NCBI GenBank assembly: GCA_964364285.1
Contig: CAYIKZ010000002.1
Location: forward strand, 3,800-67,799
Direction of reading: 5' to 3'
DNA from: an uncultured Candidatus Saccharibacteria bacterium
GTDB lineage: Bacteria > Patescibacteriota > Doudnabacteria > UBA920 > VMFF01
DNA length: 64,000 bases
Below the pieces are notes generated by a model, which was not told the origin of the DNA, did no database searches, and worked only from the letters and a program-made list of their open reading frames with translations. The translations under genes and the position numbers were made by a program. Positions within the stretch are counted from its first letter, which is position 1. Each line of letters starts with the position of its first letter. Below, piece by piece: positions 6,179 to 58,469 of the stretch.

Positions 6179-6254
6179 ATCGCTATTATATAGTATATTT
6201 TTTAGCTGTGTCCTAGCAGTATTCCCATGGGTCTCTTCCTCAGGAGGACCAAGC

Positions 6255-6752
6255 ATGCCAAACAGCAATGGGGCTGAGACTCTGGTTCGAGTGACTGAGA
6301 AGTATAATAGTCTTCTCGAAACTCTCGATCGGGAGATCAACAGCGCCCGACAGCTGGATGGTTTCAGGCTCTACTCGATGTACACCGGGCAGATGGAGTT
6401 CGTTGTCAGAGAGGTGGGAGTGCTTCGGTCATACCACACTGACGACGATAAGATTGTCCGTTATTGGTGGGCGATCAAGCAGCTTACCACGCTTTTGCAC
6501 AAGCTGGAGGCTGCTCAGCTCAAATTCTTGAAGGACCGGGCGCATATTTTGCCGCAGAAGTTTTTCCGTTTCCGGCGTCGCGTTCTGCAAGACTCTGGAC
6601 ACTCGCATCTGATACAGCTGACAAAGGAGTGCGCACACTGGGTGCACATCTTCGCCCGTGCTGCGAACAGCCCCAATGCAACAGTGTATAGGCTCCGACC
6701 GCAGCTGGTTGGAATCCTGACACGGATGCAAGATATACAAACCAGACTTTAG
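6255..6752 (+). CDS. Hypothetical protein encoded in GC-rich island 1
   Basis: 166 aa from an ATG preceded by GGAGG. GC-rich codon usage unlike its neighbours. No recognised domain. Confidence 0.5.
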   Translation: MPNSNGAETLVRVTEKYNSLLETLDREINSARQLDGFRLYSMYTGQMEFVVREVGVLRSYHTDDDKIVRYWWAIKQLTTLLHKLEAAQLKFLKDRAHILPQKFFRFRRRVLQDSGHSHLIQLTKECAHWVHIFARAANSPNATVYRLRPQLVGILTRMQDIQTRL

Positions 6753-6819
6753 AATAGGAGGAAATAACAGGAAGAGTTTTTCAGTTCACGTTGCGCGTAG
6801 TCCTCACACAGGAGAACCG

Positions 6820-7011
6820 ATGGCACGTATGAGAGCGTACTGGGATTCCGGATTTGACAACGCCGCTCGCCACAAGAAGAGCAAGGGAGAAGCCCGTCGT
6901 CGTCGGGAAGATCCCGACGCACAGGCGAAGCAAGTGGCGGCGCAGATCGCCACGCTTGCTCGCAAGAACGCGGTTGGATCCCGTTCCTCGCTGCTGCACA
7001 TCAAGCAGTGA
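6820..7011 (+). CDS. Small basic protein encoded in GC-rich island 1 (hypothetical)
   Basis: 63 aa, Arg/Lys-rich, AGGAG 5 nt upstream of the ATG. Confidence 0.35.
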   Translation: MARMRAYWDSGFDNAARHKKSKGEARRRREDPDAQAKQVAAQIATLARKNAVGSRSSLLHIKQ

Positions 7012-7139
7012 GCTTCCTGAACACAACAGCCACCACCTTGGGTAACACCAAGATGGTGGCTGGTTCATTCCTCATGGCTCCTTGACCGGAGCTTGACATC
7101 GGGTGTATACTTTTTCTTACTTTGTTTGTAATAAAAGGT

Positions 7140-9965
7140 ATGATAAAGATACGAGGTGCAAAACAGCATAATTTGAAGAATATTAACTTGGATTTACCAA
7201 GTAATAAGCTTATCGTAATGACAGGACTTTCCGGCTCAGGGAAGTCTTCTTTAGCGTTTGATACCATCTATGCGGAAGGACAGCGTAGATATGTTGAGTC
7301 GCTTTCAGCGTATGCAAGACAGTTTTTGGGGTTAATGGATAAACCTGATGTTGAAAGCATTGAAGGTCTTTCTCCAGCAATTTCAATAGATCAGAAAAGC
7401 GCATCACATAATCCTCGTTCAACAGTTGGAACTGTTACTGAAATATATGACTATCTCCGTTTACTCTATGCAAGAGTAGGTGTGCCACACTGTCCTGTTT
7501 GTGGAAAGAAAATCTCCGGACAAACAGTTAGCCAAATGATCGATCAACTTTCAAACCTCCCTCATGGATCAAAGATAATCCTGATGGCTCCGTTCATCAA
7601 AGATCAAAAAGGAGAACACAAACATGTTTTAGAGGAAGCAAAAAAAGCAGGGTATGCCAGAGTCAGAGTCGATAGTATAGTTATGGATTTAGATGAGGCT
7701 TTAAGATTAAACTTAGATAAAAAGAAGAAACACTCAATTGAAGTTGTAATTGATCGTATTACCATAGACAAGGATGAGCGTGGAAGACTTGCTGATTCTT
7801 TAGAAACAGCCTTGGAGTTAGGTGATGAAACAGCCATTGTTCAGTTAGCAGACAATTCTAGTAAAGAAATTTTACTTTCTCAGAAATTTGCATGTCCAGA
7901 AGGGCACATGAGCATGCCAGAGTTAGCACCAAGAAACTTTTCTTTCAATTCACCACACGGTGCTTGTCCTGAATGTACAGGTTTAGGAACAAAATTAGAA
8001 ATTGTTCCAGAACTAGTCATACCAAATCCAAAACTTACCTTAGCAGAGGGAGCAATTCGTCCTTGGAGCAAAACTACATCTCGTATTTCATGGTATACAA
8101 GGATTCTACAAGCAGTTGCTGATGAGTTTGGTTTTTCAATGGATGTTCCAATTTCAAAACTTCCTAAATCAGCGGTTGATATAATTCTGCATGGAACTGG
8201 AGAAAAAAAGATCTCAGTAGAACATGGGGAAGATGATTTTGAATATGATTACAACACCACATTTGAAGGTGTAATTCCAAACCTTGAACGTAGATACAGA
8301 GAAACTGATTCTGATTACATGCGCAGAGAAATTGAAAACTACATGCGTATTACTGAATGTCCTGTTTGTTTTGGAAAGAGATTAAAACCAGAGGCTCTTG
8401 CTGTGACAGTTGTAGACAAGGGAATTGTTGATGTTTCAAAAATGAGCATTGATGATGCTGAACTTTTCTTTAGAGACTTAAACAAAAAACTTTCAGAGAA
8501 AGACAAAAAGATTGCATATCAAATATTAAAAGAAATTAGCGCAAGACTTTCTTTCCTCAAAGATGTTGGTCTAAACTATTTAACACTTGATAGAAGCGCA
8601 GACACTCTTTCCGGAGGAGAAGCACAACGTATTCGCTTAGCAACACAGATTGGTTCTGGTTTAACAGGTGTTTTGTATATCTTAGATGAACCATCAATTG
8701 GTTTACACCAAAGAGACAATGACCGTTTACTAAAAACCCTTAAAGGATTAAGAGATTTAGGAAACACAGTCATTGTTGTTGAACATGATCAAGATACCAT
8801 TGAGTCATCTGATTGGGTTGTTGATATTGGACCAGGCGCAGGTAAGCATGGTGGAGAAATCATTGCAGAAGGAACACCAGCACAAATAAAGAAGAACAAG
8901 AATTCAATAACAGGGCAATATCTTTCTGGTGTTGAGAAAATAGAGGTGCCAAAAAGAAGACATCCTGGAAACGGTAAGAAACTAAGCATCATAGGAGCAG
9001 AAGAGCATAATTTAAAAAATATTAATGTTGATCTTCCTCTTGGTAAATTTGTTGTTTTAACTGGTGTTTCAGGTTCAGGTAAATCAACCTTGCTTAATGA
9101 AATTCTTGCAAAAGCTCTTTCAAACTATTTCTACAACTCAAAAGAAGCAGTTGGTAAACACAAGAAACTTCAAGGTGTTGAACACATCGACAAGGTAATA
9201 AACATAGATCAATCACCAATCGGAAGAACACCAAGATCAAACCCTGCGACATACACAGGCGTTTTCACATATATTAGAGATCTCTTTGCTGCAACTCCAG
9301 AAGCAAAAATGCGAGGTTACAAAGCTGGTAGATTCTCCTTCAATGTTAAAGGAGGTAGATGTGAGGTTTGTGGTGGTGACGGAGTTATTAAAATTGAGAT
9401 GCATTTCTTAGCTGATGTCTATGTTGCTTGTGAAGAATGTAAAGGTAAGAGATACAACAGAGAAGCTTTAGAAATACATTACAAAGAAAAAAATATCTCT
9501 GATGTTTTAGAGATGACAGTTGATGAAGCAAAGACTTTCTTCAAACATATCCCATTAATCTACAAGAAACTAGAAACACTTTCAGAAGTAGGTCTTGGTT
9601 ACATGCACCTTGGTCAGCAAGCAACAACTCTTTCTGGTGGAGAAGCACAGCGTATAAAATTGTCTGCAGAACTTTCCCGTGCATCAACAGGGAGAACACT
9701 CTACATCTTGGATGAACCAACAACAGGATTGCACTTTGCCGATGTTAAACGACTCCTTTCAGTTTTAAACAAACTTGTTGAAAAAGGAAACACAGTCGTT
9801 GTCATTGAACACAACCTTGATGTCATAAAAAGCGCGGATTGGGTTATTGACCTAGGTCCTGAAGGCGGGGACAAGGGCGGAGAATTAATAGCCGCCGGAA
9901 CCCCTGAAGATGTGTCGAAGATAAAGAGAAGTTACACAGGACAATATCTAAAAAAGATGCTTTAA
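7140..9965 (+). CDS. uvrA: Excinuclease ABC subunit A (UvrA)
   Basis: Two ABC ATPase modules with zinc fingers and the conserved N-terminus [17 protein letters not shown] 7140 with AAAGG is preferred over the TTG at 7122. Confidence 0.95.
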
Positions 9966-9966
9966 C

Positions 9967-9992
9967 AAAAGACCCTTAAGAAGGGTCTTTTT
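9967..9992 (+). terminator. Rho-independent terminator after uvrA
   Basis: Stem agaccctt / aagggtct with loop aag, followed by TTTTT. Confidence 0.6.
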
Positions 9993-10017
9993 AGCACTTG
10001 ACATGTTAGACTGCTAA
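9991..10017 (+). promoter_or_regulatory. CIRCE operator (HrcA binding site) with an embedded TTGACA -35
   Basis: TTAGCACTT-N9-GACTGCTAA against consensus TTAGCACTC-N9-GAGTGCTAA. Confidence 0.7.
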
Positions 10018-10031
10018 ATATTAAAATGTCT

Positions 10032-10058
10032 TTAGCAAACAGTAGAGGAGAGTGCTAA
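10032..10058 (+). promoter_or_regulatory. Second CIRCE-like element abutting the hrcA start codon
   Basis: TTAGCAAAC-N9-GAGTGCTAA. The right arm is perfect. It overlaps the AGGAG RBS. Confidence 0.55.
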
Positions 10059-10790
10059 ATGAATGGAAAAAAGCCCCAAAACATTACTCCCAGACAAGCT
10101 AAGATATTAGCCGCTATTGTTAGGGAGTATTCAAATACCCCAGAACCAGTTAGTTCAGAGGATATAAGCGTGAAATATAGGTTGGATATATCCTCAGCAA
10201 CCATCCGTAATGAAATGATGGCCTTAGAAAGAAACGGATACATCCAACAGCCACATACATCATCAGGAAGAGTACCGACTGATCTTGGGTATAGATATTT
10301 CGTAAAAGAGCTGATGAAGCGTTTTGAGCTTTCATTAAAAGAACAAATCTCTTTAAGAGAACAGCTTGGTAGGTTACAACAACAGACTCATGAAATAGGG
10401 AAAAACATCGCAAGATTACTTGCTGAAAAAACAGATCAAGCCGCATTCGCGCTTTTACCAGAAGAAAATTCAGCTAGCGGTCTTTCAAACATCTTGCAAC
10501 ATCCGAGGTTTGATAAAAGAGACGTTGTAGAAGTAGTTCAGTTCTTTGAGGATATCGATGAATATGCTGATCAGATGTTGAGCGATTTCTTTAAAGAACA
10601 ACCATCAGCGTTAATTGGTAAAGAACATCATCTGGCGCCAATAAAGAACTACTCATTAATTGTTTCTAAAGTTGAACTACCAACAGGAGAGCGTGGATTA
10701 ATTGGTATAGTCGGACCAAAATCAATGCGATATGACAAAAATATTAGTTTAGTTGAATATTTTGCAAAATACTTAAGCACAGGAGAATAA
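10059..10790 (+). CDS. hrcA: Heat-inducible transcription repressor HrcA (short form)
   Basis: N-terminal winged-HTH region typical of HrcA (ILAAIVREY..., RNEMMALE). First gene of the grpE-dnaK cluster behind the CIRCE elements. Confidence 0.8.
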   Translation: MNGKKPQNITPRQAKILAAIVREYSNTPEPVSSEDISVKYRLDISSATIRNEMMALERNGYIQQPHTSSGRVPTDLGYRYFVKELMKRFELSLKEQISLREQLGRLQQQTHEIGKNIARLLAEKTDQAAFALLPEENSASGLSNILQHPRFDKRDVVEVVQFFEDIDEYADQMLSDFFKEQPSALIGKEHHLAPIKNYSLIVSKVELPTGERGLIGIVGPKSMRYDKNISLVEYFAKYLSTGE

Positions 10791-10792
10791 CT

Positions 10793-11308
10793 ATGGACGA
10801 ACAACAAATATCAGAAACCAGCAGCGGAGATATAACAATAGAGCAGCTGCAAGCAGAGCTTTCAGAAGCCCTTAAACAAGCAGAAGAAAATCTTTCTGGA
10901 TGGAAACGAACACAGGCTGATCTAGAAAACTACAGAAAGAAAAAAGAAGCAGAGGGAACAGAGCTAGTTCAGTTTGGGAGACAAGCAGGTTTTGTTCAGA
11001 TACTCCCAGTTCTTGATTCCCTAGAAATGGCAATACTACACGCACCAGAGATTGAGGATGAAAAGTACAAGAATTTCAAAAATGGTTTAGATGGAATAGT
11101 TAAACAAATAGACGCAGCAATAGTTGCAATGGGTATATCAAAGATAGAAGCAGTTGGAAAAAAGTTTGATCCAAACCTGCATGAAGCTATAAAAGAAGTG
11201 GTTGGAGAAGAAGATGGTTTAGTAGTTGAACAATATCAAACCGGATACACACTTCAAGGAAAACTTTTAAGACCAGCGCAAGTATCAATATCAAAAAAGA
11301 ATATTTAG
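10793..11308 (+). CDS. grpE: Nucleotide exchange factor GrpE
   Basis: 171 aa with GrpE-like coiled-coil and C-terminal beta domain. Sits between hrcA and dnaK. Confidence 0.85.
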
Positions 11309-11331
11309 TAATAACATTAAGAAAGGAACAT

Positions 11332-13155
11332 ATGGCAAAAATAATCGGAATAGACTTAGGAACATCAAACTCTGCAGCTTCAGTGATGGAAGGTGGAAAG
11401 CCTGTAATTATTCCATCAGCAGAAGGAAACAGTATTGCTGGTAAAGCATTCCCTTCATACGTCGCATTTACAAAAGAAGGGCAGCTTTTAGTTGGTGAAC
11501 CTGCAAGAAGACAAGCAGTTACTAACCCAGAAGGAACTGTTTTTGAAGCAAAAAGAAAAATGGGTACTAGCTTTAAGTATTCATTAAACGGAAAAGAATA
11601 CACTCCAGAACAAATTTCTGCGTTCATCTTACAAAAGATTAAAAAGGATGCTGAAAGCTATGCTGGAGGAGCAATTTCTCAAGCAGTTATTACAGTCCCT
11701 GCTTACTTTGATGATGCTCAAAGACAAGCAACAAAAAATGCAGGAGAGATTGCTGGTTTAGAGGTTGTTAGAATAATCAACGAACCAACAGCAGCAGCCT
11801 TAGCTTACGGATTAGACAAAGTAGGACAAGAACAAAAAATCTTAGTCTTTGACCTTGGTGGTGGAACATTAGATGTTACAACAATGGACTTTGGCCAAGG
11901 AGTATTTGAAGTCATCTCAACATCTGGTGATACTCAACTTGGCGGTAAAGACATGGACTCTGCTGTAATCAACCACATCATAACTACATTCAAACAAGAA
12001 AGCGGTATTGATGTTTCAGCAGACAAAATGGCTTTAAACAGAGTTAGAGAAGCAGCAGAAAAAGCAAAGATTGAACTTTCTACAACAATGGAAACAGATT
12101 TAAACCTTCCTTTCATTACAGCTGATGCAAGTGGTCCAAAACATCTGACTATGAAAATAACCAGAGCGAAATTAGAGGAATTGGTTAAGCCAATCATTGA
12201 GAAATTAAGACATCCAATGGAGCAGGCAATTGCAGATGCAAAATTAACTCCTCACCAGATTGATAAAGTTATATTGGTTGGTGGACCTACTCGTATGCCT
12301 ATTGTACAGAAATTCGTTGAAGACTTTGTTGGTAAACAAGTAGAACGTGGTATTGATCCAATGGAAGCAGTTGCAAAAGGAGCTGCAATTCAGGCTGGTG
12401 TTTTAAGCGGTGAAGTGAAAGATATTCTTTTACTTGATGTTACTCCTTTAACGCTTGGTATTGAAACAATGGGTGGTATTAGAACACCATTAATTGATAG
12501 AAACACAACAGTTCCAACATCAAAGTCACAGGTATTTAGCACAGCTGCTGATAACCAGACATCTGTTGAGATAAACGTGTTGCAAGGGGAACGTGAATTT
12601 GCTAAAGACAACAAAACTCTAGGTAAATTCATACTAGACGGAATTCCACCAGCACCACGCGGTGTGCCACAAGTTGAAGTTGCTTTTGATATAGATGCAA
12701 ACGGTATCTTAACCGTTAAAGCAAAAGATAAAGCAAGCGGTAAAGAACAACACATCACAATTCAAGGTTCTTCAAACCTTTCAAAAGATGATATTGAAAG
12801 AATGAGAAAAGAAGCAGAAGAGCATGCTTCTGAAGACAAAAAGAGAAGAGAGACTGTTGAAATTCGGAACCAAGCAGATACCTTAATCTCTGTTTCTGAA
12901 AAGACTTTGAAAGATGCAGGAGACAAAGCATCAGAAGCAGACAGAAAAGATGCTCAGGAAAAACTAGACGCTCTAAAAAATATCAAAGACAAAGATGATA
13001 TTGATGCAATCAAAAAAGCCTTAGATGAGCTTTCCATATCAATTCAAAAGATTGGCGCTGCAATGTATCAGCAAACACCACCAGAACAAACCTCTGGTGC
13101 AGAACCTTCTGGTGAAAACAAAGAAGGACCAGTAGATGCTGAGGTTGTTAAATAA
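11332..13155 (+). CDS. dnaK: Chaperone DnaK (Hsp70)
   Basis: Hsp70 signatures [16 protein letters not shown] and VGGPTRMP. Confidence 0.97.
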
Positions 13156-26057: not shown

Positions 26058-26987
26058 ATGACGCATCGCGAAGTGCACTTCCGCGTGTCTGATGAAGACA
26101 TGCGGAAGATCGATGGGGTCTGGTCGAGTCTGAGAGACAAGGCTCAAAGGGGCCGTCTCCCAATCGACAAGATCATCCGGGAGCTCCAGCGTGCCAATGA
26201 AGGTCACTTCACGGCACCGCCGCTGACATACAGCGACGAGGAGTGTTCGGATGAAGAGAAGGGGATGTACAACGGAAACCACAAGCCTGCAAGCATCTGG
26301 GAGCAGGCGCAGTTCTGGAGTCGTATTCTCCCAGATGCGGACTTCTCGTATCTTGAGAAGTTCGCCGGAGGAGACCCTGATCTGTACCAGCTCGCCGAGC
26401 AGTGGGGTGTGGTTCCGAAGCCTCAGCTGCTTCGCGCTCCCGACTACTGGGGTGCCTACCAGCACCTCGTGCACACGTACTTCAGTTTGGACGGGGACTT
26501 CCCACACATCATGATGCAGTGGAGCGGTTTCATCAACGACCACAGCGACAGGCCACGTCTGACCAGGAAGACTGCTGCGTGGCATGAACGCATCACCGAG
26601 CAGACACCGGGAGACTTCCTGGTTTTCCCGTTCCAGTTCGGTGCTTTGCACGCCGGCAGATCTAGGCGCCGTGCCCAGGTTTGCTATGAGCACAACGAGA
26701 TTGGCCTCGGTCCTTACGAGGCATTGTGCTTGCTTGCAACGCATCCGAACCGGCTCGCGCAGGGCGCTCTCGGGTTCTACTGCATCGGTGCGAAGTGTGG
26801 CTGGCACAAGCGGGATCAGCAGGTTCCGAGTTCGGCGATGTATCCTAGCTGGTTCTGTCCGCGTTTCGGGTATTCCGACGTTGATCAGATAGCATTCGTT
26901 GACTGCGGCTTGCCGACGTACCAATCGAACCGCTACATTGGTTCGATCACGGCGTTCGAGTTGCCGATCGAGGAAGTCGCTGACTGA
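26058..26987 (+). CDS. Hypothetical protein encoded in GC-rich island 2 (no recognised domain)
   Basis: 309 aa from an ATG preceded by AAGGAGGA. GC-rich. The ORF-track start at 25899 lies in AT-rich leader and is rejected. Confidence 0.55.
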   Translation: MTHREVHFRVSDEDMRKIDGVWSSLRDKAQRGRLPIDKIIRELQRANEGHFTAPPLTYSDEECSDEEKGMYNGNHKPASIWEQAQFWSRILPDADFSYLEKFAGGDPDLYQLAEQWGVVPKPQLLRAPDYWGAYQHLVHTYFSLDGDFPHIMMQWSGFINDHSDRPRLTRKTAAWHERITEQTPGDFLVFPFQFGALHAGRSRRRAQVCYEHNEIGLGPYEALCLLATHPNRLAQGALGFYCIGAKCGWHKRDQQVPSSAMYPSWFCPRFGYSDVDQIAFVDCGLPTYQSNRYIGSITAFELPIEEVAD

Positions 26988-36678: not shown

Positions 36679-36816
36679 AGAGTAGATGATCTGCGCGATG
36701 GGAGCTCGGATCGAATCTAGACGGAGGGTGCAGGGATAATTTTAAGCAACAATTCAAAACAAAGAACGCAACGGACTTCTACGCAAACCGAGGCGTTTTT
36801 TGTTTGTCCAAAGGAT

Positions 36817-36845
36817 TTGGCAAAACCCGTACCTTATGTTAATTT
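36817..36845 (+). promoter_or_regulatory. Promoter TTGGCA-17-TAATTT (extended -10) upstream of GC-rich island 3
   Basis: Same architecture as the promoters at 25762 and 52773. Confidence 0.4.
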
Positions 36846-36915
36846 TATATGTCGCGGTACATGCCGTGATACAAGTAGGTTCACAGTCTGACACGGAGGA
36901 CTCTTGGACAAACTG

Positions 36916-37620
36916 ATGTTGCTTAACCGTATGGTGTTGGCTCTTGACGATATGGAACCGGATCAGATCGGTGAGCTGATCGCTGCACTTGCTCACAATG
37001 ATCTTCTTCCATGGTCGTTCAAGGTCAACGATCGTTGGGTCGAGAGTGGAAAGCAGACGGTACCGATGTTGCGTCTTGCGGCCGGCGGTGCTCACGTCAG
37101 GGTGCTCGCAGACCTGAAGCTCAGCGACACCCCCAAGACCATGAGCGCAAGCGCGAGGCGGGTGCGCGAGGCGGGTGCAGTTGCACTCACAATCCATGCC
37201 AGCTGCGGCCTTGATTCCATCAAGGCTGCGCTTGAGCACGGTCCAGCGGAGATCATTGCTGTGACCTTGCTCACCTCGATCAATCGGATGAACTGCCTGG
37301 CGCTCTACGGGCGTGAGCCGATTGAGCAGGTCAAGATCTTTGCCAAATACGCGCTCGAGAGCGGGGTTGGCAATCTGGTCTGCTCCGGGGAAGAAGTCGC
37401 GACGCTTCACGAGATGTACCCTGGCATCGGTCTGCTGGTTCCCGGTGTTCGTATGCCGGGTAGCGACCTTCGGGGTCAGAAGCGCATCACTACGCCATGG
37501 GATGCTTTCAACAACGGTGCAACGCGCATCGTTGTCGGAAGCGAAGTCACGATGGCGAAGGACCCAGTGGCTACGTTCGAGAATCTGCTCGCGGAAACTG
37601 AGAAGCACGTGGAGTTCTGA
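36916..37620 (+). CDS. pyrF: Orotidine-5'-phosphate decarboxylase-family protein (PyrF-like), GC-rich
   Basis: LALDD near the N-terminus, K-L-S-D-T-P-K-T (OMPDC KxxDIPNT-like) and C-terminal RIVVGSEV. ATG 36916 is used; a TTG at 36904 is possible. Confidence 0.65.
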   Translation: MLLNRMVLALDDMEPDQIGELIAALAHNDLLPWSFKVNDRWVESGKQTVPMLRLAAGGAHVRVLADLKLSDTPKTMSASARRVREAGAVALTIHASCGLDSIKAALEHGPAEIIAVTLLTSINRMNCLALYGREPIEQVKIFAKYALESGVGNLVCSGEEVATLHEMYPGIGLLVPGVRMPGSDLRGQKRITTPWDAFNNGATRIVVGSEVTMAKDPVATFENLLAETEKHVEF

Positions 37621-37640
37621 CACCAACCGGAGGAGGAAGG

Positions 37641-38336
37641 ATGATAGTAACTGGGGGAAGGTGGCAGAACGAAGCTGTGACAAGCTTCCTAGACTCCCTC
37701 TGGGCCTTTGGCGCCATCATGGGCGTCGACAAGTCGCCAGAGGGCAAGGGGTTTCGGCTTGCGCTTCACGAGCGTAACCCAGATGCCCCACTCTCGCCGT
37801 TCTACTTCAACCTGCGGCGGGTCCAGTCGCACCCGGCGACCCTGTACATGGCAGCACAGATGATGAGGGAGAAGATCATCGAGGATATTGATGGTGGTGC
37901 TTTCCAACTCATCGCCGGCATTCCAACTGCCGGTACACCGTTTTCGACAGCCTTGTCCCTGCTGATGCATCGCGGACAGGTGTCGCCGCGGATGCAGGCG
38001 AAGGGGCACGGGGTTGGTGATCTCGTGGATGGTGACTTCCATGACGGGCAGACCGTTCTGTTGGTCGACGATCTGATCACCGAGGCTGATTCCAAGCTTC
38101 GTGCGATCGACATCCTGCAGCGCGCCGGTCTCATCGTTCAGAATATCGCCGTCCTGATCGACCGGGAACAGGGCGGCAGACAGCGGCTTGAGGCTGCTGG
38201 GTACAAGGTTCACCCCGTCTTCACGGTCACTGAAGTCTTCTCCTACTACCTGGCTGCTGGTGAATCCACCCAGTCCGCCTACGACCAGATCGTGGAGTAC
38301 CTCGACCGCGAAGCCGAGAAGCACGCGAACCAGTAA
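37641..38336 (+). CDS. pyrE: Orotate phosphoribosyltransferase (PyrE-like), GC-rich
   Basis: PRPP-binding motif VLLVDDLITEADS and DREQGG. N-terminal PyrE-like flexible loop. Strong RBS GGAGGAGGAAGG. Confidence 0.75.
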   Translation: MIVTGGRWQNEAVTSFLDSLWAFGAIMGVDKSPEGKGFRLALHERNPDAPLSPFYFNLRRVQSHPATLYMAAQMMREKIIEDIDGGAFQLIAGIPTAGTPFSTALSLLMHRGQVSPRMQAKGHGVGDLVDGDFHDGQTVLLVDDLITEADSKLRAIDILQRAGLIVQNIAVLIDREQGGRQRLEAAGYKVHPVFTVTEVFSYYLAAGESTQSAYDQIVEYLDREAEKHANQ

Positions 38337-38509
38337 CAAACAATCGACAAGAGGAAAAACCGTCCCTGGAGGAGGACGGATGAAAGAAACAGGCTATGGC
38401 TCTGGTGCAGATTTTGTACCAGAGCCTGCTGTTTTTTAGTGATTGTGGATAAACTTGATTTAGTTGTTTAAAAAGGTTGAAATTATTGGATTTTTGATAT
38501 ATTTGCCTA

Positions 38510-38557
38510 CCACAACATATGGTGCTAAGATGTTTTTAGGAACACAAGATATAGTGT
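38510..38557 (+). promoter_or_regulatory. Tandem NrdR boxes upstream of nrdR-nrdJ
   Basis: Box 2 ACACAAGATATAGTGT (15/16 to acaCwAtATaTwGtgt). Box 1 CCACAACATATGGTGC (12/16). Centres 32 bp apart. Confidence 0.55.
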
Positions 38558-39149: not shown

Positions 39150-42100
39150 ATGAGTGAAAACTTACAAATCAGAACCAAGAACGCACTATCCGAACTCGGA
39201 GAAAAAATCTTTCTAGATCGTTATGCAGTTAAAGATGCTAAAAAAGAAACATTGGCAGTAGGAGATACTGTTGTCATCAATGTTAATTTAAAAACAGGAC
39301 AGAGAGAAATTGGAACAGTTAAGGAAGTTGATAGGTTTAGCAAACAAGTAGAAGTAACCTTGCGCGATGGCACAGTAGAGAAACGCGCAATAGAGCATGT
39401 AGACAAACCTTTGGAAACAGTTCCTGAACAAATGTTTGAGCGCATAGCTCGTCATATTGCAAGCGTTGAGAAAACTCCAGAAAAACAAAATGAATGGCAG
39501 GGGAAATTTAGAGAACTAATGGATGACTGGAAATATGTTCCAGCAGGAAGAATCTTTACTGGTGCAGGAACCGGTCAAAACCTAACTTTTTACAACTGCT
39601 ATGTCATACCATGTCCTCAGGATTCTCGTGGTGGTATTTTTGACACACTCAGACAAATGGCAGAAATCATGTCCCGAGGGGGCGGTGTTGGTATAAACGT
39701 ATCTACGTTGAGACCAAGATACGCATATGTTAAAGGTGTTAATGGAAGATCCTCTGGTTCTGTTTCCTGGGCTTCTTTGTATAGCTTTGTTACAGGTTTA
39801 ATTGAACAGGGTGGTTGTTTTGGACCGAATGAAAGAATTGCAACCAATGTTGGTTTGGTTCCTGCAAAAGAATTGGCTGACCGTGTTGAAGCAGGTGAAG
39901 CAATATACGCCCAAACCCATAAAGGTATGCGCCGAATAACAGCTAAATTCAGAAATGGCGTGAAAGAACTTTATGAAGTAACAACTGAGCGTGGATTTAG
40001 CACCGAGATAACAGCAGATCATAAGGTTGCAGTACTATTAAACGGCCGAGTTGAAACAACTGCTTTAAAAAATTTGAAGCAAGGAGACGACATCTTGTTG
40101 TTGCTTGGCAATGCTACTGGTCAAAATTATGTGTCGCTTAAGAAAAGTGATTACAAGCGTTCTGTAATGAGTACGACCTTAAATACTGATGTTCGTCTTC
40201 CTGAAATGCTCAATGAAGATTTGGCATACCTTGTTGGATATATGTTGGGTGATGGATATGTGAGTTGGGGTAAAAAAGTAAATTGGTCTGCTCCTAAAGC
40301 TGTTAAAATGGCAACCGCCGATGCATACCCTGAAATTCGTCAGAGAATTGTTGATGCGATCCAAAATCTTTTTGGTGTTGATGCAGTAATTGAAAAAGGC
40401 GACGGTGCTTGCCAAAACGTTTCTTTGTATTCTCGCATTGTAATTGAGTGGCTCTTAGAAAATGGTTTACTCAAATCTAAAGCAAAAGATATTCGTGTGC
40501 CAGAAAGCATTTTTCGCTCACCGACCAGCGTGACTGGGTCATTCATAGCCGGGTATTTTGACGCTGACGGTTGCAACCGTGGAGCAAAGGGTGGTTATGG
40601 TATTGACAGCATAAGTCGTGAAATGCTCACAGACGTGCAACAGCTTTTAGCTGCAAACGGTGTCTTGTCTGCTATTCGTGCAACTGATCGAACAGAACAA
40701 GGTTGGCAAACAATCTATCGTTTAAGTGTTACTGGAAATCAATTTAAAGAGCGTTTTGCGGATTTGGTTTCTACTGCCAAGCGTTCTGACTTCAATGGCA
40801 AGCGCGATATGTTTAATACTTACCCGTCAGAAATTTTAGCTGCTGTCGGTGTGCGTAGCAAGGACCGTCAGGGAATCTATGATGGCACATCTCCGCAGGT
40901 TTCTTTTAATCAACTTGTACACATCCAAAAACGTTTGAATACTGTCGAACAATATTCTGCCGCCCAATATCTTGATGACATCATGCACACCATTCCTGAC
41001 ACGATTACCGCAATCAAATCGGTTGGTAAAAGCGATGTTTATGACTTTGAGGTTGAAGATGTCCATTTGCTCAGCGGTGGTGGTGTTTACACTTCAAACA
41101 GCAGAAGAGGCGCTTTAATGCTCATTCTAAACGTTTGGCATCCTGATATTGTTGATTTCATTAATGCAAAGAGAGAAGCTGGAAAAATAACTAACGCGAA
41201 TATTTCTGTTGGTATTACTGATGATTTTATGGAAGCAGTTAAAAATGATGCTGACTGGGATTTGGTTTTCCCAGACACATCAGATCCTTTGTATCAATCA
41301 GAGTGGGCTGAGACACAAGGTGATATTAAAGCATGGCAAAAACTTGGTGGTAAAGTCGTTGTTCATAAAACAATGAAAGCAAAAGAAATCTGGGATCAAA
41401 TCATTTCCTCAGCATGGTCTTCAGCAGAACCTGGTGTTTACTTCATTGATCGCGCAAACTATCTTTCAAATTCTTACTACTACGCAGCATTGCCTTGTAC
41501 CAATCCTTGTGGTGAACAACCACTTCCTGCTTGGGGTGTTTGTAACCTAGGACATGTTAATCTTGCAAAACATCTTACAAACAATGAAGTTGATTGGCAG
41601 AAATTAAAAGAAACAGTAAGATACGCAGTTCGTTTCCAGGACAATGTCATAGATGCAACACCATACTTCTTTGATGAGAACTTTAAACAACAAATGTCTG
41701 AAAGAAGAGTTGGTATGGGAACAATCGGACTCGCAGAAATGTTAATTAAATTAAGAATTAGATATGGCAGTGATCAAGCAATTCAATTCATCGACAAACT
41801 ATATCAATTCATTGCAGTTACATCTTACGAAACATCAGTAGAAATCGCTCGTGAAAAAGGATCTTTCCCTCAATTTGATGCTGAAAAATTCTTAGAAAGC
41901 GGATACATGAAAGCAATGCCTGAATATATTCGTTCATTAGTAAGACAATACGGTGTAAGAAACGTAACAATAATGACTCAGGCACCAACTGGAACAATCG
42001 GAACAATGGTTGGAACATCAACAGGAATTGAACCATTCTTCTCATGGACATACTTTAGAAAGAGCAGACTTGGTGTTCATGAAGAAAAGATTAAACTAGC

Positions 42101-43106
42101 TCAAGACTGGTTGGATCAAAATCCAGGACAAGAACTTCCAGAATACTTTGTTACTGCAATGAGCCTTGCTCCTGAAGACCACGTTAGAGTTCAGGCAGCA
42201 GTTCAACGTTGGACAGACTCAGCAATTTCAAAGACCTGTAATGCCCCTTCAAACTACACTGTAGAAGACACTAAAAAGCTATACCAGATGATGTATGACC
42301 TTGGTTGCAAAGGTGGAACCATTTACCGTGATGGTTCAAGAGATGAACAAATCTTAGCAACAGATGCAAAGAACCTTGGTAAAGATGTTCAGGAACAACT
42401 AGAGGCAAAAGCAAAGATTGAAACACAAGTAACTCAAATTGTTCAAGAAGGACAAGATCTCTTACAAATTGGTGACCACAAGTTCTTGGTTAAAAAACTC
42501 ATTCAAAACGGAACTAAATTTGAAGTTGTACCAAGGGAACGTCCAATTGAGATGCAAGGAACAACATACAAATTAAATACGCCGTATGGTTCGCTCTTTG
42601 TAACCATAAACGAAGATGAGCATGGACCATTTGAAGTCTTTGCACAGCTTGGTAAAGCTGGTGGTTTTTTCGCAGCTCAATCAGAAGCTCTATGCAGAAT
42701 GATTTCCTTAAGTTTAAGATCAGGCGTTGCTGTAGAGGAAATAATCAAACAGTTGAAGGGAATTAGAAGTACTGAGGTTGCATTTAACCAAGGCGAGATA
42801 ATTTATTCATTGCCTGATGGTATTGCAAAGACCATGGAAAAGCACATCAATCGCAAACAGCAAAGCTTACAACTCCAATTCAAACAAGCAGAACCAGCAA
42901 AACTCGATTTAAAAGAAGAAGTCAAAATGACAGTTTCAGAAGGACCGGTAGAAGTAAGTTCTGTTGCGGAGTTTCAGCCTAAACAACAAAAGGTTTCAAT
43001 GGCAGACTATGGTCATGCGCCGGTTTGTCCAGATTGTTCTTCAATGCTTGTTATGGCAGAGGGATGTATGAAATGTGATGTCTGCGGATATTCTAAGTGC
43101 GGTTAA
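39150..43106 (+). CDS. nrdJ: Ribonucleotide reductase, adenosylcobalamin-dependent (class II-like), containing an intein
   Basis: RNR catalytic motifs (NPCGE, C-terminal CxxC...CxxC tail). nrdR is upstream and a cobalamin adenosyltransferase gene downstream. 1318 aa including the intein. Confidence 0.85.
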   Translation: MSENLQIRTKNALSELGEKIFLDRYAVKDAKKETLAVGDTVVINVNLKTGQREIGTVKEVDRFSKQVEVTLRDGTVEKRAIEHVDKPLETVPEQMFERIARHIASVEKTPEKQNEWQGKFRELMDDWKYVPAGRIFTGAGTGQNLTFYNCYVIPCPQDSRGGIFDTLRQMAEIMSRGGGVGINVSTLRPRYAYVKGVNGRSSGSVSWASLYSFVTGLIEQGGCFGPNERIATNVGLVPAKELADRVEAGEAIYAQTHKGMRRITAKFRNGVKELYEVTTERGFSTEITADHKVAVLLNGRVETTALKNLKQGDDILLLLGNATGQNYVSLKKSDYKRSVMSTTLNTDVRLPEMLNEDLAYLVGYMLGDGYVSWGKKVNWSAPKAVKMATADAYPEIRQRIVDAIQNLFGVDAVIEKGDGACQNVSLYSRIVIEWLLENGLLKSKAKDIRVPESIFRSPTSVTGSFIAGYFDADGCNRGAKGGYGIDSISREMLTDVQQLLAANGVLSAIRATDRTEQGWQTIYRLSVTGNQFKERFADLVSTAKRSDFNGKRDMFNTYPSEILAAVGVRSKDRQGIYDGTSPQVSFNQLVHIQKRLNTVEQYSAAQYLDDIMHTIPDTITAIKSVGKSDVYDFEVEDVHLLSGGGVYTSNSRRGALMLILNVWHPDIVDFINAKREAGKITNANISVGITDDFMEAVKNDADWDLVFPDTSDPLYQSEWAETQGDIKAWQKLGGKVVVHKTMKAKEIWDQIISSAWSSAEPGVYFIDRANYLSNSYYYAALPCTNPCGEQPLPAWGVCNLGHVNLAKHLTNNEVDWQKLKETVRYAVRFQDNVIDATPYFFDENFKQQMSERRVGMGTIGLAEMLIKLRIRYGSDQAIQFIDKLYQFIAVTSYETSVEIAREKGSFPQFDAEKFLESGYMKAMPEYIRSLVRQYGVRNVTIMTQAPTGTIGTMVGTSTGIEPFFSWTYFRKSRLGVHEEKIKLAQDWLDQNPGQELPEYFVTAMSLAPEDHVRVQAAVQRWTDSAISKTCNAPSNYTVEDTKKLYQMMYDLGCKGGTIYRDGSRDEQILATDAKNLGKDVQEQLEAKAKIETQVTQIVQEGQDLLQIGDHKFLVKKLIQNGTKFEVVPRERPIEMQGTTYKLNTPYGSLFVTINEDEHGPFEVFAQLGKAGGFFAAQSEALCRMISLSLRSGVAVEEIIKQLKGIRSTEVAFNQGEIIYSLPDGIAKTMEKHINRKQQSLQLQFKQAEPAKLDLKEEVKMTVSEGPVEVSSVAEFQPKQQKVSMADYGHAPVCPDCSSMLVMAEGCMKCDVCGYSKCG
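39816..41099 (+). mobile_element. Intein with a LAGLIDADG homing-endonuclease domain inside nrdJ
   Basis: Begins with Cys after ...EQGG. Two LAGLIDADG motifs (LAYLVGYMLGDGYV, FIAGYFDADGC). Block G VYDFEVEDVHLL...VYTSN, followed by the extein SRRGALM. Confidence 0.75.
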
Positions 43107-46161: not shown

Positions 46162-47601
46162 ATGAACAAGTCTAGCATTTTTGTTTGGGGAATTAGTTTT
46201 TTCCTTCTAGGTTCTTTCCTGGGAGTTAGCAAACAGACGGGGATAATACTTCCGTTGATTCTTTTTGTGTTTGGGTTGTTTTGCTCTTTTAAGATTAAAG
46301 AGAGGAGGTTAAAAATATCCGCAATATTTCTTGTTTTCTTCTTGCTTGGTTTTTTGAAAGCAGAGGTCTCTTCTTGGGAAGAAAGTAAATACTCCAAATA
46401 CTATGGCCAAAAAGCTTTCTTCAAAGCAACAATTGCGAAAGACCCTGAAACATACAAACAAAAATTTAAAAGAATAACCCTAAAGCCCGAGGGATTTGAT
46501 CAGATGCTTTTAACAACGTTTTTTACAAGAGACCAGTATTTCTACGGAGATCATGTTTTTGTAAGTGGAAAGATAAAAGAACCAAGAAGTGATGATGATT
46601 TTAACTACAAAAGATATCTTCAATCAAAAAATATCTATGCTCAGATTTCTTCTCCTGAAATCTTTGTCCTTACAAAAGCAAATGGTTTTACTTTAAACTC
46701 TAATCCAGCAATATTCTGGAGCTTGAAATTTAAACACTGGGTTTACAAACAATTTCAACAAAAGCTTCCAAAAGAACAGGCTGGTCTTTTGGTTTCCTTG
46801 CTAGTGGGACAAAAAGAGTTGCTTTCAGAACAAACAATTACAGAGTTTACCAAAGCAGGTTTGGCTCATATAATCGCGGTGTCGGGATTTACACTCACTT
46901 TAATCCTTCTTTTCTGTAGCAAACTAGGTGCGTATATTGGTAAAAAGAAGGCTTGGGCAATTTGTTTAGCGGTTGCTTTCCTTTATATTGTAATGGCTGA
47001 TTTTGCCGCTGGTGTCATACGAGCAGCTTTGATGTCAGGAATATTTGTTTTTGGGAAAAGCTTTGGTAGACAATACACGCTTTTGCCAGCTTTAGCTTTC
47101 ACAGCTGGAGCTTTGGTTTTTCTTAACCCTTTGATAATAAAGTATGACATTGGGTTTATGCTTTCTTTTCTTTCAATTCTCGGAATATTGTTCTTTGTTC
47201 CACCACTTGAAATCCTTCTTGAAAAAATACATATTCCAAAAAGATTTGAAATACGAAGCATTATTGCAACAACCCTGGCTGCTGAAATTGTTACAGTCCC
47301 ATTAACCCTTTATTATTTTCAACAATTTTCAGTTGTTGCACCACTTTCTAATCTGCTAATCCTTCCTATTCTTCCGATCTGTCTTGCTTTAGGGTACTTG
47401 GTTTGTTTTCCTTTGATAGGTTTTTTGATTGCAAAAATTCTTTTGATCCCTTTAAACTATTGCTTGTTTGTTGTTTCAACACTCTCTTCATTCAAATATT
47501 CAACCTTAAATTTTAAGATTCAAGCAAGCGTTTTAATCCTGGCATACATAGGTATTTTTCTCTTCTACAGAGCTTTAATGCGAAAGTTGAAAGATGTTTA
47601 A
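46162..47601 (+). CDS. ComEC/Rec2-family competence membrane protein (no beta-lactamase domain)
   Basis: N-terminal DUF4131-like region plus a multi-TM competence domain. 479 aa. Confidence 0.7.
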   Translation: MNKSSIFVWGISFFLLGSFLGVSKQTGIILPLILFVFGLFCSFKIKERRLKISAIFLVFFLLGFLKAEVSSWEESKYSKYYGQKAFFKATIAKDPETYKQKFKRITLKPEGFDQMLLTTFFTRDQYFYGDHVFVSGKIKEPRSDDDFNYKRYLQSKNIYAQISSPEIFVLTKANGFTLNSNPAIFWSLKFKHWVYKQFQQKLPKEQAGLLVSLLVGQKELLSEQTITEFTKAGLAHIIAVSGFTLTLILLFCSKLGAYIGKKKAWAICLAVAFLYIVMADFAAGVIRAALMSGIFVFGKSFGRQYTLLPALAFTAGALVFLNPLIIKYDIGFMLSFLSILGILFFVPPLEILLEKIHIPKRFEIRSIIATTLAAEIVTVPLTLYYFQQFSVVAPLSNLLILPILPICLALGYLVCFPLIGFLIAKILLIPLNYCLFVVSTLSSFKYSTLNFKIQASVLILAYIGIFLFYRALMRKLKDV

Positions 47602-52078: not shown

Positions 52079-52732
52079 TTAAACTTTCTTTATGACCTCT
52101 GCGATATATCCTGGTTCTGTAATGGAATGCGTATAGCTATTCAGTATTAAACTTACTAATTCATCCTTATGTACAAAAGAAACATCATCAGAAACATGAT
52201 TAACACCACCATCGCGCATATTCGGCATAACAAGGATCGCATTAACCCAAATTTTTTTTCTGCAGTACGCATCAATGAAATGCTTTAACTTCATTGCACC
52301 ACGATGTGATTGATTTAAAAAAGCATGCATTTGTCCCTGGTTTGGGTGATAGTGGCTTTTGACTTCAATCGCAAAAATTCCAGTTGGACCAATAACAGCA
52401 AAATCAATATCACCGCCGTGTCTTAAAGAGAGGTCTTGGAAAACATAAAAGTCATGTGGTAGGCGAAGAAGTTCTTTTTTGATGCTTTCTTCACCCCAGA
52501 TTCCTCTTGAAAATCTATGAGATCTTTTTTCAAAAAGTTTAGCCAAGCTGTAACCGAGAGGGATTAATAGAACAATCAAAAGCATCCAATCAGAAAGAGA
52601 AGAGTAGGTATCAACATCACGCTGGGTTAAATAACTCAAAAACAAGAACAGTCCTAAGGTTATGACAAACAGAAGAATAAAAAGAGACTCTTTTCTTTGC
52701 AGGAAACTGCTTTTTTTAATGTATATAGCCAT
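52079..52732 (-). CDS. NERD (nuclease-related domain) protein, membrane-anchored
   Basis: N-terminal TM helices plus a NERD-like core ...DFYVFQDLSLRHGGDIDFAVIGPTGIFAIEVKS.... Confidence 0.65.
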   Translation of the reverse strand: MAIYIKKSSFLQRKESLFILLFVITLGLFLFLSYLTQRDVDTYSSLSDWMLLIVLLIPLGYSLAKLFEKRSHRFSRGIWGEESIKKELLRLPHDFYVFQDLSLRHGGDIDFAVIGPTGIFAIEVKSHYHPNQGQMHAFLNQSHRGAMKLKHFIDAYCRKKIWVNAILVMPNMRDGGVNHVSDDVSFVHKDELVSLILNSYTHSITEPGYIAEVIKKV

Positions 52733-57072: not shown

Positions 57073-57693
57073 ATGCAATATAATGAATTTAAGGAACAAT
57101 TAAAAGACTTTATTGTTTTTTCGATAACGGATATCCGCAAGATAGAACCGAAGTTTTACCGCCGTCGTTTAAATGAGTGGCAAGACAAGGGTTACATCAA
57201 GAAGATACGCCGTGGTTACTATATGTTTGCAGACACGCAGTTGAGTGAGGAAAAGCTTTTTTTGATTGCTAATAAAATTTATTCTCCATCTTATGTTTCT
57301 TTTGAAATGGCTTTGTCTTATTATGGTCTGATCCCCGAAGGTGTTTATTCGATTACTTCTGCTTCCAGCAAGAAGACAGAAAAGTTTAAGACAACTGTTG
57401 GTGAATTTACTTATCGAAGTCTTAAGCCACAACTGCTGTTTGGTTTTAGCTTACTAACGCAAGGAAAACAGACATACAAGTTAGCGGAGATGGAAAAGGC
57501 AGTCTTAGATTATTTATACATCAATTCCAAGAGCACGAGAAAGGAAGATTTGCAGGAGTGGCGATTTGAGGGGCGAGAATTTCTGGCAAAGGCTGACTTA
57601 AATAAGTTTAATAGATATGTTAAAGCTTTTAATAGTCCCAGTCTGGAAAAGCGAGTCAAGCAGTTTATAAATTTTATTAAGCAACAACAATAA
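57073..57693 (+). CDS. AbiEi-like antitoxin (type IV toxin-antitoxin / abortive-infection transcriptional regulator)
   Basis: 206 aa with an N-terminal wHTH and AbiEi_4-like layout. 1-nt overlap with the downstream nucleotidyltransferase gene. Confidence 0.65.
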   Translation: MQYNEFKEQLKDFIVFSITDIRKIEPKFYRRRLNEWQDKGYIKKIRRGYYMFADTQLSEEKLFLIANKIYSPSYVSFEMALSYYGLIPEGVYSITSASSKKTEKFKTTVGEFTYRSLKPQLLFGFSLLTQGKQTYKLAEMEKAVLDYLYINSKSTRKEDLQEWRFEGREFLAKADLNKFNRYVKAFNSPSLEKRVKQFINFIKQQQ

Positions 57694-58469
57694 TGTTAAC
57701 CTTAGAACAAATTGAACAGCAATATCCTGAAAATTTGCGAGCTTTTAAGCGTTCACTGCTTCGAGAGTATTTGCAGTATAAGATATTAGAAATTATTTTT
57801 GCTTCTGAGTATGCCTCTAAGCTGTCATTTTTGGGTGGCACAGCTTTAAGAATCCTTTATAATAATAATCGTTTTTCTGAAGATATTGATTTTGACAATT
57901 TTGGTTTAGAAGAGAGCGAGTTTAATGCCTTAGCAGAAAAGGTAAAATCTGGTTTAGAAGCTGAGGGACTGAAAGTAGAAATTGATATTGTTGGTAAAGA
58001 GGCTTATCGTTGCAATGTTCGTTTTCCAGATATTCTTTTTGGCAGCGAGCTGTCTCAACATCAAAGCGAAAAAATTCTTATTCAAATTGACAGTCTAGCG
58101 CACGGTTTTTCTTACCAACCCGAACGCAAGATTTTGAACAAGTTTGATGTTTTTACCGAAATTTTTGTTGCCACTTCTGATTTGTTACTGTCGCAAAAAA
58201 TAAATGCTGCTGTAAACCGCAAACGGGCCAAAGGTAGGGATTTTTATGATATTGTATTTTTGCTATCTTTTACCAAGCCCAACTATCAATACCTACACCA
58301 AAAAATGAACATTAGGGAACCAGAAGAGTTAAGAGCAAAGCTACTTAAACTGTCTGAGGAACTTGATTTTACAGAGTTAGCACGAGATGTAGAGCCTTTT
58401 CTTTTTAATCCTAGTGATAGTAAAAAGGTAGAGTTATTCCGAGATTTTATTCAGCAAGCAAAATTATAG
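57693..58469 (+). CDS. AbiEii/AbiGii-family nucleotidyltransferase toxin (DUF1814)
   Basis: GGTALRILYNNNRFSEDIDFD NTase motif. 258 aa. Confidence 0.75.
   Translation: MLTLEQIEQQYPENLRAFKRSLLREYLQYKILEIIFASEYASKLSFLGGTALRILYNNNRFSEDIDFDNFGLEESEFNALAEKVKSGLEAEGLKVEIDIVGKEAYRCNVRFPDILFGSELSQHQSEKILIQIDSLAHGFSYQPERKILNKFDVFTEIFVATSDLLLSQKINAAVNRKRAKGRDFYDIVFLLSFTKPNYQYLHQKMNIREPEELRAKLLKLSEELDFTELARDVEPFLFNPSDSKKVELFRDFIQQAKL

Follow-up and report, generated by a model that had tools for sequence, protein, structure and literature searches.

A GC-rich pyrF–pyrE operon, probably for orotate-to-UMP conversion, held between ftsZ and nrdR in a Doudnabacteria clade and marked by probable allele replacement

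We analysed a 64-kb stretch of DNA, hereafter the window (all coordinates are positions in it), from a low-GC, Doudnabacteria-like Patescibacterium with a tiny genome, represented by a Hainich groundwater metagenome-assembled genome (MAG; contig JBBTQQ010000005.1). Between ftsZ and nrdR it carries a GC-rich island of two genes, pyrF and pyrE. We judge it probable that the island is an operon for making uridine monophosphate (UMP) from orotate, that it descends from a foreign block already present in the ancestor of the clade and kept there by purifying selection, that it may be a remnant of a larger island, and that its alleles have been replaced repeatedly. A preliminary description, made from the sequence alone, had named an orotidine 5′-monophosphate (OMP) decarboxylase (OMPDC) gene next to an orotate phosphoribosyltransferase (OPRT) gene at this place. 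Both open reading frames (ORFs) exist, with hidden Markov model (HMM), PDB and fold matches, and the motifs quoted for them (LALDD, DLKLSDTPKT, RIVVGSEV, VLLVDDLITEADS and DREQGG) are present. The pair was also called GC-rich and compositionally foreign, which is confirmed by a GC content of 58.5% over 36904–38336 against a window background of 37.8% (s.d. 2.4%, maximum 48.3%; z = 8.6). GC at third codon positions (GC3) is 0.68–0.72 in the two genes and 0.26–0.32 in the flanking ones. The GC step (approx. 36880–38360) matches the extent of both coding sequences, with sharp borders at their ends.

Results

Identity and predicted function of PyrF and PyrE

PyrF scores above the cutoffs of Pfam PF00215 (OMPdecase; E 3.4e-30, 106 bits against a cutoff of 27) and TIGR01740 (pyrF; 95.9 against 92.3), and its sequence matches in the PDB are exclusively OMPDCs. 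The AlphaFold2 (AF2) model (pLDDT 93.5) is a (β/α)8 TIM barrel that Foldseek aligns with the K. pneumoniae, B. subtilis and E. coli enzymes at TM scores of 0.82–0.84 (0.84, E 4.5e-19, for 8cso; 0.82 for 1dbt). The catalytic residues D15, K39 and D70-x-K72-x-x-D75 are kept and do not vary within the clade; among the 149 nearest representatives, at least 134 share them. PyrF further retains S125 and R183, as well as Q192 in the gripper loop. The preliminary description had suggested checking the active site for loss of the catalytic Lys and Asp residues. All are retained; the phosphate-gripper Arg, however, is Ser. The protein thus shares with bacterial type 1 OMPDCs (B. subtilis 1DBT, K. pneumoniae 8CSO and E. 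coli 1EIX) the fold, the Asp/Lys/Asp-x-Lys-x-x-Asp set, the LTS Ser, the PGxR Arg and the gripper-loop Gln, but it is only 26–30% identical to them and falls below the stricter equivalog model PRK00230 (132.6 against a cutoff of 193).

PyrE matches OPRT models with E-values of 1e-22 to 3e-30 and sits exactly at the cutoff (26.3) of the Pfam phosphoribosyltransferase (PRTase) family PF00156. Its best PDB sequence match is the OPRT domain of human UMP synthase (UMPS; 2wns, E 4e-23), with the OPRT of Leishmania UMP synthase also among the best. In a Foldseek search of the PDB with the AF2 model (pLDDT 88.9), ranks 1–36 are all OPRT or UMP synthase chains (best 2wns, TMt 0.90), and adenine phosphoribosyltransferase first appears at rank 37. 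Residues of the phosphoribosyl pyrophosphate (PRPP) loop, flexible loop and orotate site align with human OPRT. Across 15 homologues, D143-D144-L-I-T147, R117, K121, H123, S52-P53-F-Y55-F and D174-R175 show little or no variation, with roles that we take to be those of the corresponding positions in Salmonella/E. coli OPRT numbering. The subfamily often adjoins an OMPDC gene or is fused to one, in dozens of loci of an 80-locus metagenome sample. In sequence and fold its closest matches are the OPRT of eukaryotic UMP synthase (human 2WNS, Leishmania 3QW4) and the cyanobacterial-type bifunctional PyrF/PyrE (PRK05500). These share with window PyrE the motifs SPxYxxLR, R-x-x-x-K-x-H-G, DD-x-x-T and DREQGG and an OMPDC partner. 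They differ in being fusions, whereas window PyrE is encoded by a separate gene. Window PyrE further differs in an extended N-terminus, in a K-L-H-E...PDAP insertion of the kind typical of the branch found in the candidate phyla radiation (CPR), and in a PRPP loop that reads T-E-A-D-S-K where these relatives have T-S-G-S-S.

PyrE would condense orotate and PRPP to OMP, and PyrF would decarboxylate OMP to UMP. This is the best-supported function, and we infer enzymatic activity from the canonical folds and active sites; conversion of orotate to UMP, as first proposed, is most likely what the pair does. Orotate would be an externally supplied substrate. The absence of other de novo pyrimidine genes, also noted earlier, holds among the annotated ORFs of the window, where no pyrB, pyrC, pyrD or carAB was found; the nucleotide-related genes there are nrdR, nrdJ, ndk and relA/spoT. 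The operon is flanked by ftsA-ftsZ and a gene for a 138-residue membrane protein on one side, and by nrdR-nrdJ and a cob(I)alamin adenosyltransferase gene on the other. The closest named relatives are Candidatus Doudnabacteria.

An old island under purifying selection

Related loci (given L-codes here) were collected from NCBI, ENA, JGI and Logan assemblies. The pair pyrF-pyrE occupies this ftsZ|nrdR slot in no fewer than six lineages, namely the window type, L003/L001, L009, L089/L004, L093 and L103/L102. Island GC is 57–59% in all six, against 37–40% in the flanks. Reading frames are intact in every allele, and the ratio of nonsynonymous to synonymous divergence (dN/dS) between alleles is 0.07–0.24, indicating purifying selection. 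No empty site was seen in any of the 10 distinct neighbourhoods with identical NrdR, nor at other loci of the clade. The constant slot and GC content, low dN/dS and lack of empty sites argue that the island was already in the clade ancestor and has been held by selection; it is old in the clade and not a recent arrival. At its borders we found no integrase and no tRNA, and the repeats there are short, at chance level and unconvincing as integration repeats. A scan of a genome collection for relatives returned the source contig and one unrelated match only.

The sharp composition step, in sequence from a MAG, might also point to assembly chimerism, contamination or the remnant of a decaying pseudogene. 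Independent assemblies of many samples in NCBI, ENA and Logan data reproduce the junctions, the flanking untranslated regions (UTRs) are conserved, and the intact frames and dN/dS values above do not fit decay. We regard an artefact or pseudogene as effectively refuted.

A larger block occupies the slot in a distant syntenic relative, L107, a 640-kb CPR contig (GCA_034680565.1) whose FtsZ and NrdR are 63% identical to those of the window. Here, 6.5 kb of GC-rich DNA (5916–12400 of that contig; GC3 0.65–0.75 against approx. 0.5 in the flanks) encode pyrD-pyrF-pyrE-pyrC-purB-purC. The products are a dihydroorotate dehydrogenase-family protein, PyrF, a PyrE of the same type as in the window, a dihydroorotase (TIGR00856, E 2e-67), PurB and PurC. 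Because this locus keeps a larger block in the slot, the window pair may be what is left of a larger, laterally acquired island for nucleotide biosynthesis, which we offer as a weak suggestion. The window lineage would then retain just the orotate-to-UMP end, at least at this locus. The earlier proposal of a laterally acquired module therefore stands in so far as the composition is foreign; a recent, stand-alone acquisition does not fit a slot shared by at least six lineages, with a larger block in L107.

Probable repeated allele replacement at the slot

Alleles of the island are only 51–77% identical across genomes whose flanks are 97–100% identical. Between the window and L004, flanking proteins are 97–100% identical and flanking nucleotides 90–95%, with a proportion of synonymous differences (pS) of 0.2–0.45; in the island, PyrF is 56% and PyrE 74% identical, nucleotides are 75% identical and pS is saturated at 0.65–0.74. 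When 183 segments of 200 nt were compared over 18.8 kb of this alignment, all those below 80% identity save one lay in the island or at its left edge (starts 36799–38179), identity outside averaging 90.4% (s.d. 3.3%). Divergence tapers over approximately 300 nt into the left flank and ends within approximately 100 nt on the right, in UTRs conserved across alleles.

Island divergence does not track a clock. The identity matrices of flanks and islands disagree: L089 and L093 share 97% identity in the flanks and 74% in the islands, while L089 and L009 share 90% and 82%, respectively. The two genes can also differ in history, since between L103 and L089 pyrF diverges in step with the flanks (pS 0.42; proportion of nonsynonymous differences, pN, 0.07) and pyrE is saturated (pS 0.69, pN 0.25). 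L103 pyrE is an outlier to all others, as is window pyrF, at 51–56% identity. On a finer scale, 19.4 kb of the near-identical strain L006 contain 26 differences from the window, and 20 of these are packed into a mosaic tract, 75 nt long, at the pyrE 3′ end (table 1). In seven independent assemblies of the window strain the island is identical (0 differences in 1480 nt) and the flanks are slightly different. Continuous local hypermutation is therefore ruled out, the differences coming as tracts. GC-richness is not a general marker of hypervariability either: a second GC-rich island in the window, island 2, has a pS of 0.35 and 89% amino acid identity in comparison with L100, similar to its own flanks.

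The simplest reading is repeated replacement of whole genes by homologous recombination, with at least five gene-level events in the six lineages. Recombination would run through the conserved promoter and terminator flanks, and the incoming alleles would come from more distant, mostly unsampled relatives. A ComEC gene in the window is consistent with DNA uptake as the route; natural competence has been reported in another CPR phylum (PMC10187176).

Function and origin weighed against alternatives

Several observations weigh against the interpretation given above, some bearing on function and others on origin. With respect to function, the phosphate-gripper Arg of OMPDC (Sc R235, Mt R203), part of a near-universal G-R motif, is Ser213 in 10 of 10 clade members. 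The residue that follows is acidic or an amide (GSE/GSD/GSQ), Glu in the window protein, and the gripper loop has R-G-Q in place of the x-D-Q of relatives. The equivalent change in the yeast enzyme, R235A, lowers kcat/Km 19,000-fold (PMC12874384). PyrE, for its part, is under every NCBIfam OPRT equivalog cutoff (TIGR00336, 84.1 against 106.8; PRK13809, 81.6 against 208; PRK00455, 80.3 against 245); the L107 and L108 members of its branch likewise score below the OPRT cutoffs. Among the genes of the window we identified no orotate transporter.

Among the 149 nearest representatives, which are clusters at 50% identity, the gripper position is Arg in 117, Ser in 21 and Thr in four. The gripper Arg is a conserved functional residue rather than a family-defining one. 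Both of the Ser-gripper representatives that have a source name are Patescibacteria, and we read Ser213 as a lineage-typical variant, for which R189 possibly compensates. We found no biochemical characterization of a Ser-gripper OMPDC variant in the literature.

The gripper change and the low equivalog scores of both proteins (PyrF below PRK00230, PyrE below all OPRT cutoffs) could instead mean that the pair is not plain UMP synthesis and handles another substrate (an analogue of orotate, for instance, or a nucleotide phosphorylated in a different way) or serves nucleotide modification or defence. A further hint in this direction is L108, a 949-kb CPR contig with two pyrF/pyrE pairs side by side (5698–10636). 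One belongs to a canonical prs-pyrE-pyrF-pyrD cluster of native composition, with a Thermus-type pyrE; the other, divergently transcribed, combines a GC-rich pyrF with a CPR-type pyrE of the kind found here (GC3 0.67–0.72 against approx. 0.48). This double set may reflect xenologous displacement in progress or two functions. Against another substrate, every residue of OMPDC chemistry is present, as are R117, K121, H123, D143-D144, T147 and R175 of OPRT, and the folds match OMPDC and OPRT only. Many loci carry this OPRT subfamily joined to OMPDC in a UMP synthase fusion, and in L107 it sits amid pyrD, pyrC, purB and purC. No modification, glycosylase or toxin genes adjoin the pair, PADLOC returned nothing, and the only PHROG match is a generic PRTase, so that a defence or phage origin is not indicated. 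We consider another substrate or role quite improbable, and the non-canonical nucleotide-modifying system that the preliminary description had held out as an alternative found no support in the active sites, the folds, the linkage to OMPDC or the PADLOC search.

With respect to origin, no high-GC donor was found. The preliminary description had expected a donor clade of this kind; the closest relatives lie instead in Patescibacteria-like contigs. In a search of 5.8 billion proteins, all homologues above 50% (PyrF) or 60% (PyrE) identity sit in the same Doudnabacteria context, and the next relatives of both proteins come from Patescibacteria/CPR-like contigs. Relatives in a GC-rich context are no closer than approximately 45% identity, and the neighbour-joining (NJ) trees are star-like. 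With the nearest relatives of Patescibacteria type and no donor in view, it is the composition that argues for lateral transfer. GC3 stays at approximately 0.7 in lineages with saturated synonymous sites, which weighs against simple amelioration, since decay would be predicted unless the donor was extremely GC-rich. As for the remnant suggestion, L107 PyrF and PyrE are only 27% and 45% identical to those of the window, and the star-like OPRT tree leaves the orthology of the L107 and L108 genes to the window genes unsettled.

The pair could accordingly be native Patescibacteria stock, inherited vertically or exchanged within the CPR, its GC content being held up by a local force such as GC3 selection or GC-biased gene conversion at a recombination hotspot. 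The Patescibacteria names of the Ser-gripper representatives (two of the 21 in 149), the grouping of the OPRT with low- and mid-GC CPR-like loci, the GC3 of approximately 0.7 in all alleles despite saturated pS and a locus that clearly recombines are all in keeping with this. So is the recurrence of GC-rich pairs in unrelated low- and mid-GC CPR contigs, at other sites in L060 (GC3 0.65 against 0.23), L020, L017, L035 and L041 and also in L107 and L108. On the other hand, island 2 is as GC-rich yet not hypervariable, so GC-richness needs no recombination, and other members of the same OPRT cluster (L028, L046, L019 and L021) have a native low GC3. We know of no ground on which GC3 would be selected. 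Sparing of pyrimidines in the mRNA was rejected as an explanation, given an increase in U+C from 0.42 to 0.49 and an equally high GC content in island 2, which is unrelated. Polarized third-position substitutions lean from GC to AT (GC to AT against AT to GC, 26 versus 9 in the island, 26 versus 11 in island 2 and 81 versus 97 in the flanks); these counts are uninformative on amelioration versus equilibrium, as the same bias arises from parsimony whenever outgroups are saturated and composition is skewed. Taken as a whole, native stock seems unlikely to us. One old transfer, from a donor very rich in GC and with slow parallel amelioration afterwards, can account for the uniform 57–59% GC, and we infer a lateral origin of the block from its composition.

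The observations also admit a composite account, to which we give slightly more weight while still thinking it rather unlikely. A cassette of GC-rich pyrF and CPR-type pyrE would circulate among Patescibacteria by recurrent exchange, the slot studied here being a fixed hotspot with deeply diverged alleles; its composition would be kept by re-import or a local GC force, and the Ser gripper would be a CPR-specific form of phosphate binding.

The GC-rich pyrF-pyrE pairs at unrelated sites lie at 4900–6588 of L060 (murC | pyrF pyrE | rpsP), 4996–6699 of L020 and 4991–6693 of L017. Their pyrF genes are not of one type: those of L017 and L020 are type 2, and that of L060 is type 1 and extended at the C-terminus.

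Operon architecture and other features of the window

The two genes, 20 nt apart, form one operon with a GGAGGA-type ribosome-binding site (RBS) ahead of each and a strong intrinsic terminator at 38398–38436 (table 1). The TTG start of pyrF (238 aa) aligns with the ATG starts of homologues; pyrE (231 aa) is intact. A consensus promoter scan called nothing at the candidate promoter, and Rfam found no riboswitch or leader upstream of pyrF, even at E ≤ 1. Long antisense ORFs over both genes are a by-product of GC-rich DNA. The pyrE RBS and start codon are repeated at 85% identity 3′ of pyrE, where the copy opens a 19-codon ORF (MKETGYGSGADFVPEPAVF) that overlaps the terminator hairpin and may be what survives of a lost third cistron. 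Within pyrF, a perfect 13-nt tandem repeat (GCGCGAGGCGGGT twice) is probably due to chance rather than recent duplication, because the frame is intact and the protein aligns to homologues.

Table 1. Features of the pyrF-pyrE operon and of its surroundings, in window coordinates.
Feature	Position	Strand	Basis or remark
Candidate weak promoter TTGGCA-N17-TAATTT/TATATG	36817..36851	+	By eye, upstream of pyrF; region 83–86% conserved with relatives
Shine-Dalgarno GGAGGA of pyrF	36895..36900	+	Sequence; start placed by alignment to 238-aa homologues
pyrF, OMP decarboxylase, bacterial type 1, Ser213 instead of gripper Arg	36904..37620	+	HMM, PDB sequence, fold, residues
13-nt tandem repeat in pyrF	37151–37176		
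Shine-Dalgarno GGAGGAGGAAGG of pyrE	37629..37640	+	Sequence; within the repeated stretch 37629–37654
pyrE, predicted OPRT of UMPS-like (CPR-type) subfamily	37641..38336	+	HMM, PDB sequence, fold, residues, linkage
Mosaic (gene-conversion-like) tract, pyrE 3′ end	38272..38346	+	Comparison with near-identical strain L006
3′ UTR, two hairpins	38360..38436	+	Intrinsic terminator at 38398–38426 and T-run; 13-bp stem; conserved in all alleles
Repeated pyrE RBS and start codon	37629–37654 and 38368–38393		
19-codon ORF	38380–38439		
Antisense long ORFs	36754–37683 and 37689–38339		
NrdR-box-like palindrome CACAACATATGGTG	38511–38524		Upstream of nrdR
NrdR-box-like palindrome ACACAAGATATAGTGT	38542–38557		Upstream of nrdR
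nrdJ	39150–43106		
LAGLIDADG intein in nrdJ	approx. 39817–41102		
ComEC gene	46162–47601		
Island 2	26058–26987	+	58% GC, GC3 0.71; 309-aa protein
uvrC	4400–6340	−	
Third GC-rich patch	approx. 6340–7120		approx. 50% GC
Sole sizeable ORF of third patch	6141–6752		
uvrA	7122–9965	+	
NERD-domain gene	52079–52732		
AbiEii-family nucleotidyltransferase toxin gene	57693–58469		Preceded by 206-aa ORF (region 57073–58469)

The two NrdR-box-like palindromes are approximately 30 bp apart. They stand upstream of nrdR only, with none upstream of pyrF, and co-regulation of pyrF by NrdR is not indicated. The nrdJ gene encodes a B12-type ribonucleotide reductase with an intein, giving a window-lineage NrdJ of 1318 aa. 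The intein is absent from the 90–95% identical nrdJ of L004, L093 and L096 (890 aa), and its presence is therefore polymorphic within the clade.

The island 2 protein has no Pfam, PADLOC or PHROG match, and its eight homologues in 5.8 billion proteins are all Doudnabacteria or Parcubacteria-like. The third GC-rich patch lies between uvrC and uvrA; its sole sizeable ORF has no match in Pfam, PADLOC or PHROG, and Rfam was empty even at E ≤ 1. The window also has a NERD-domain gene. The AbiEii-family toxin gene and the 206-aa ORF before it, amid many ORFans, are likely a toxin–antitoxin or abortive-infection pair.

Discussion

The two enzymes are ordinary members of known families, NCBI annotation already names pyrF, and our findings leave the basic annotation unchanged. 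What is unusual is that the locus is a hotspot of allele replacement, stays GC-rich and encodes a Ser-gripper OMPDC, which makes its evolution moderately interesting. The slot is a clean natural example of gene-by-gene allele replacement within near-identical genomes of uncultivated bacteria, and the natural Arg-to-Ser variant offers a ready test case for the phosphodianion-activation mechanism of OMPDC.

Bacteria that import orotate, through OroP in Lactococcus or DctA in Salmonella, salvage it by way of PyrE and PyrF. The same two enzymes would make UMP from external orotate here; the difference is that no transporter was identified in the window. Apparently foreign metabolic modules in reduced, symbiont-type genomes have precedents among CPR bacteria, in the cyo operon of Doudnabacteria and Saccharibacteria (PMC8407418) and in RuBisCO (PMC6389311). 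Compared with those acquisitions, the pyrF-pyrE module has no nameable donor, is old in its clade, stays GC-rich and has undergone repeated allele replacement at a fixed slot.

The general view of the CPR/Patescibacteria is that they cannot make nucleotides (PMC8407418, PMC7304191), and our literature search found no paper that deals with orotate or OPRT in the CPR. Conservation of an orotate-to-UMP operon under selection suggests that at least this Doudnabacteria clade may use orotate and not just finished nucleosides. If that is true, it narrows what the clade may take from its host or community.

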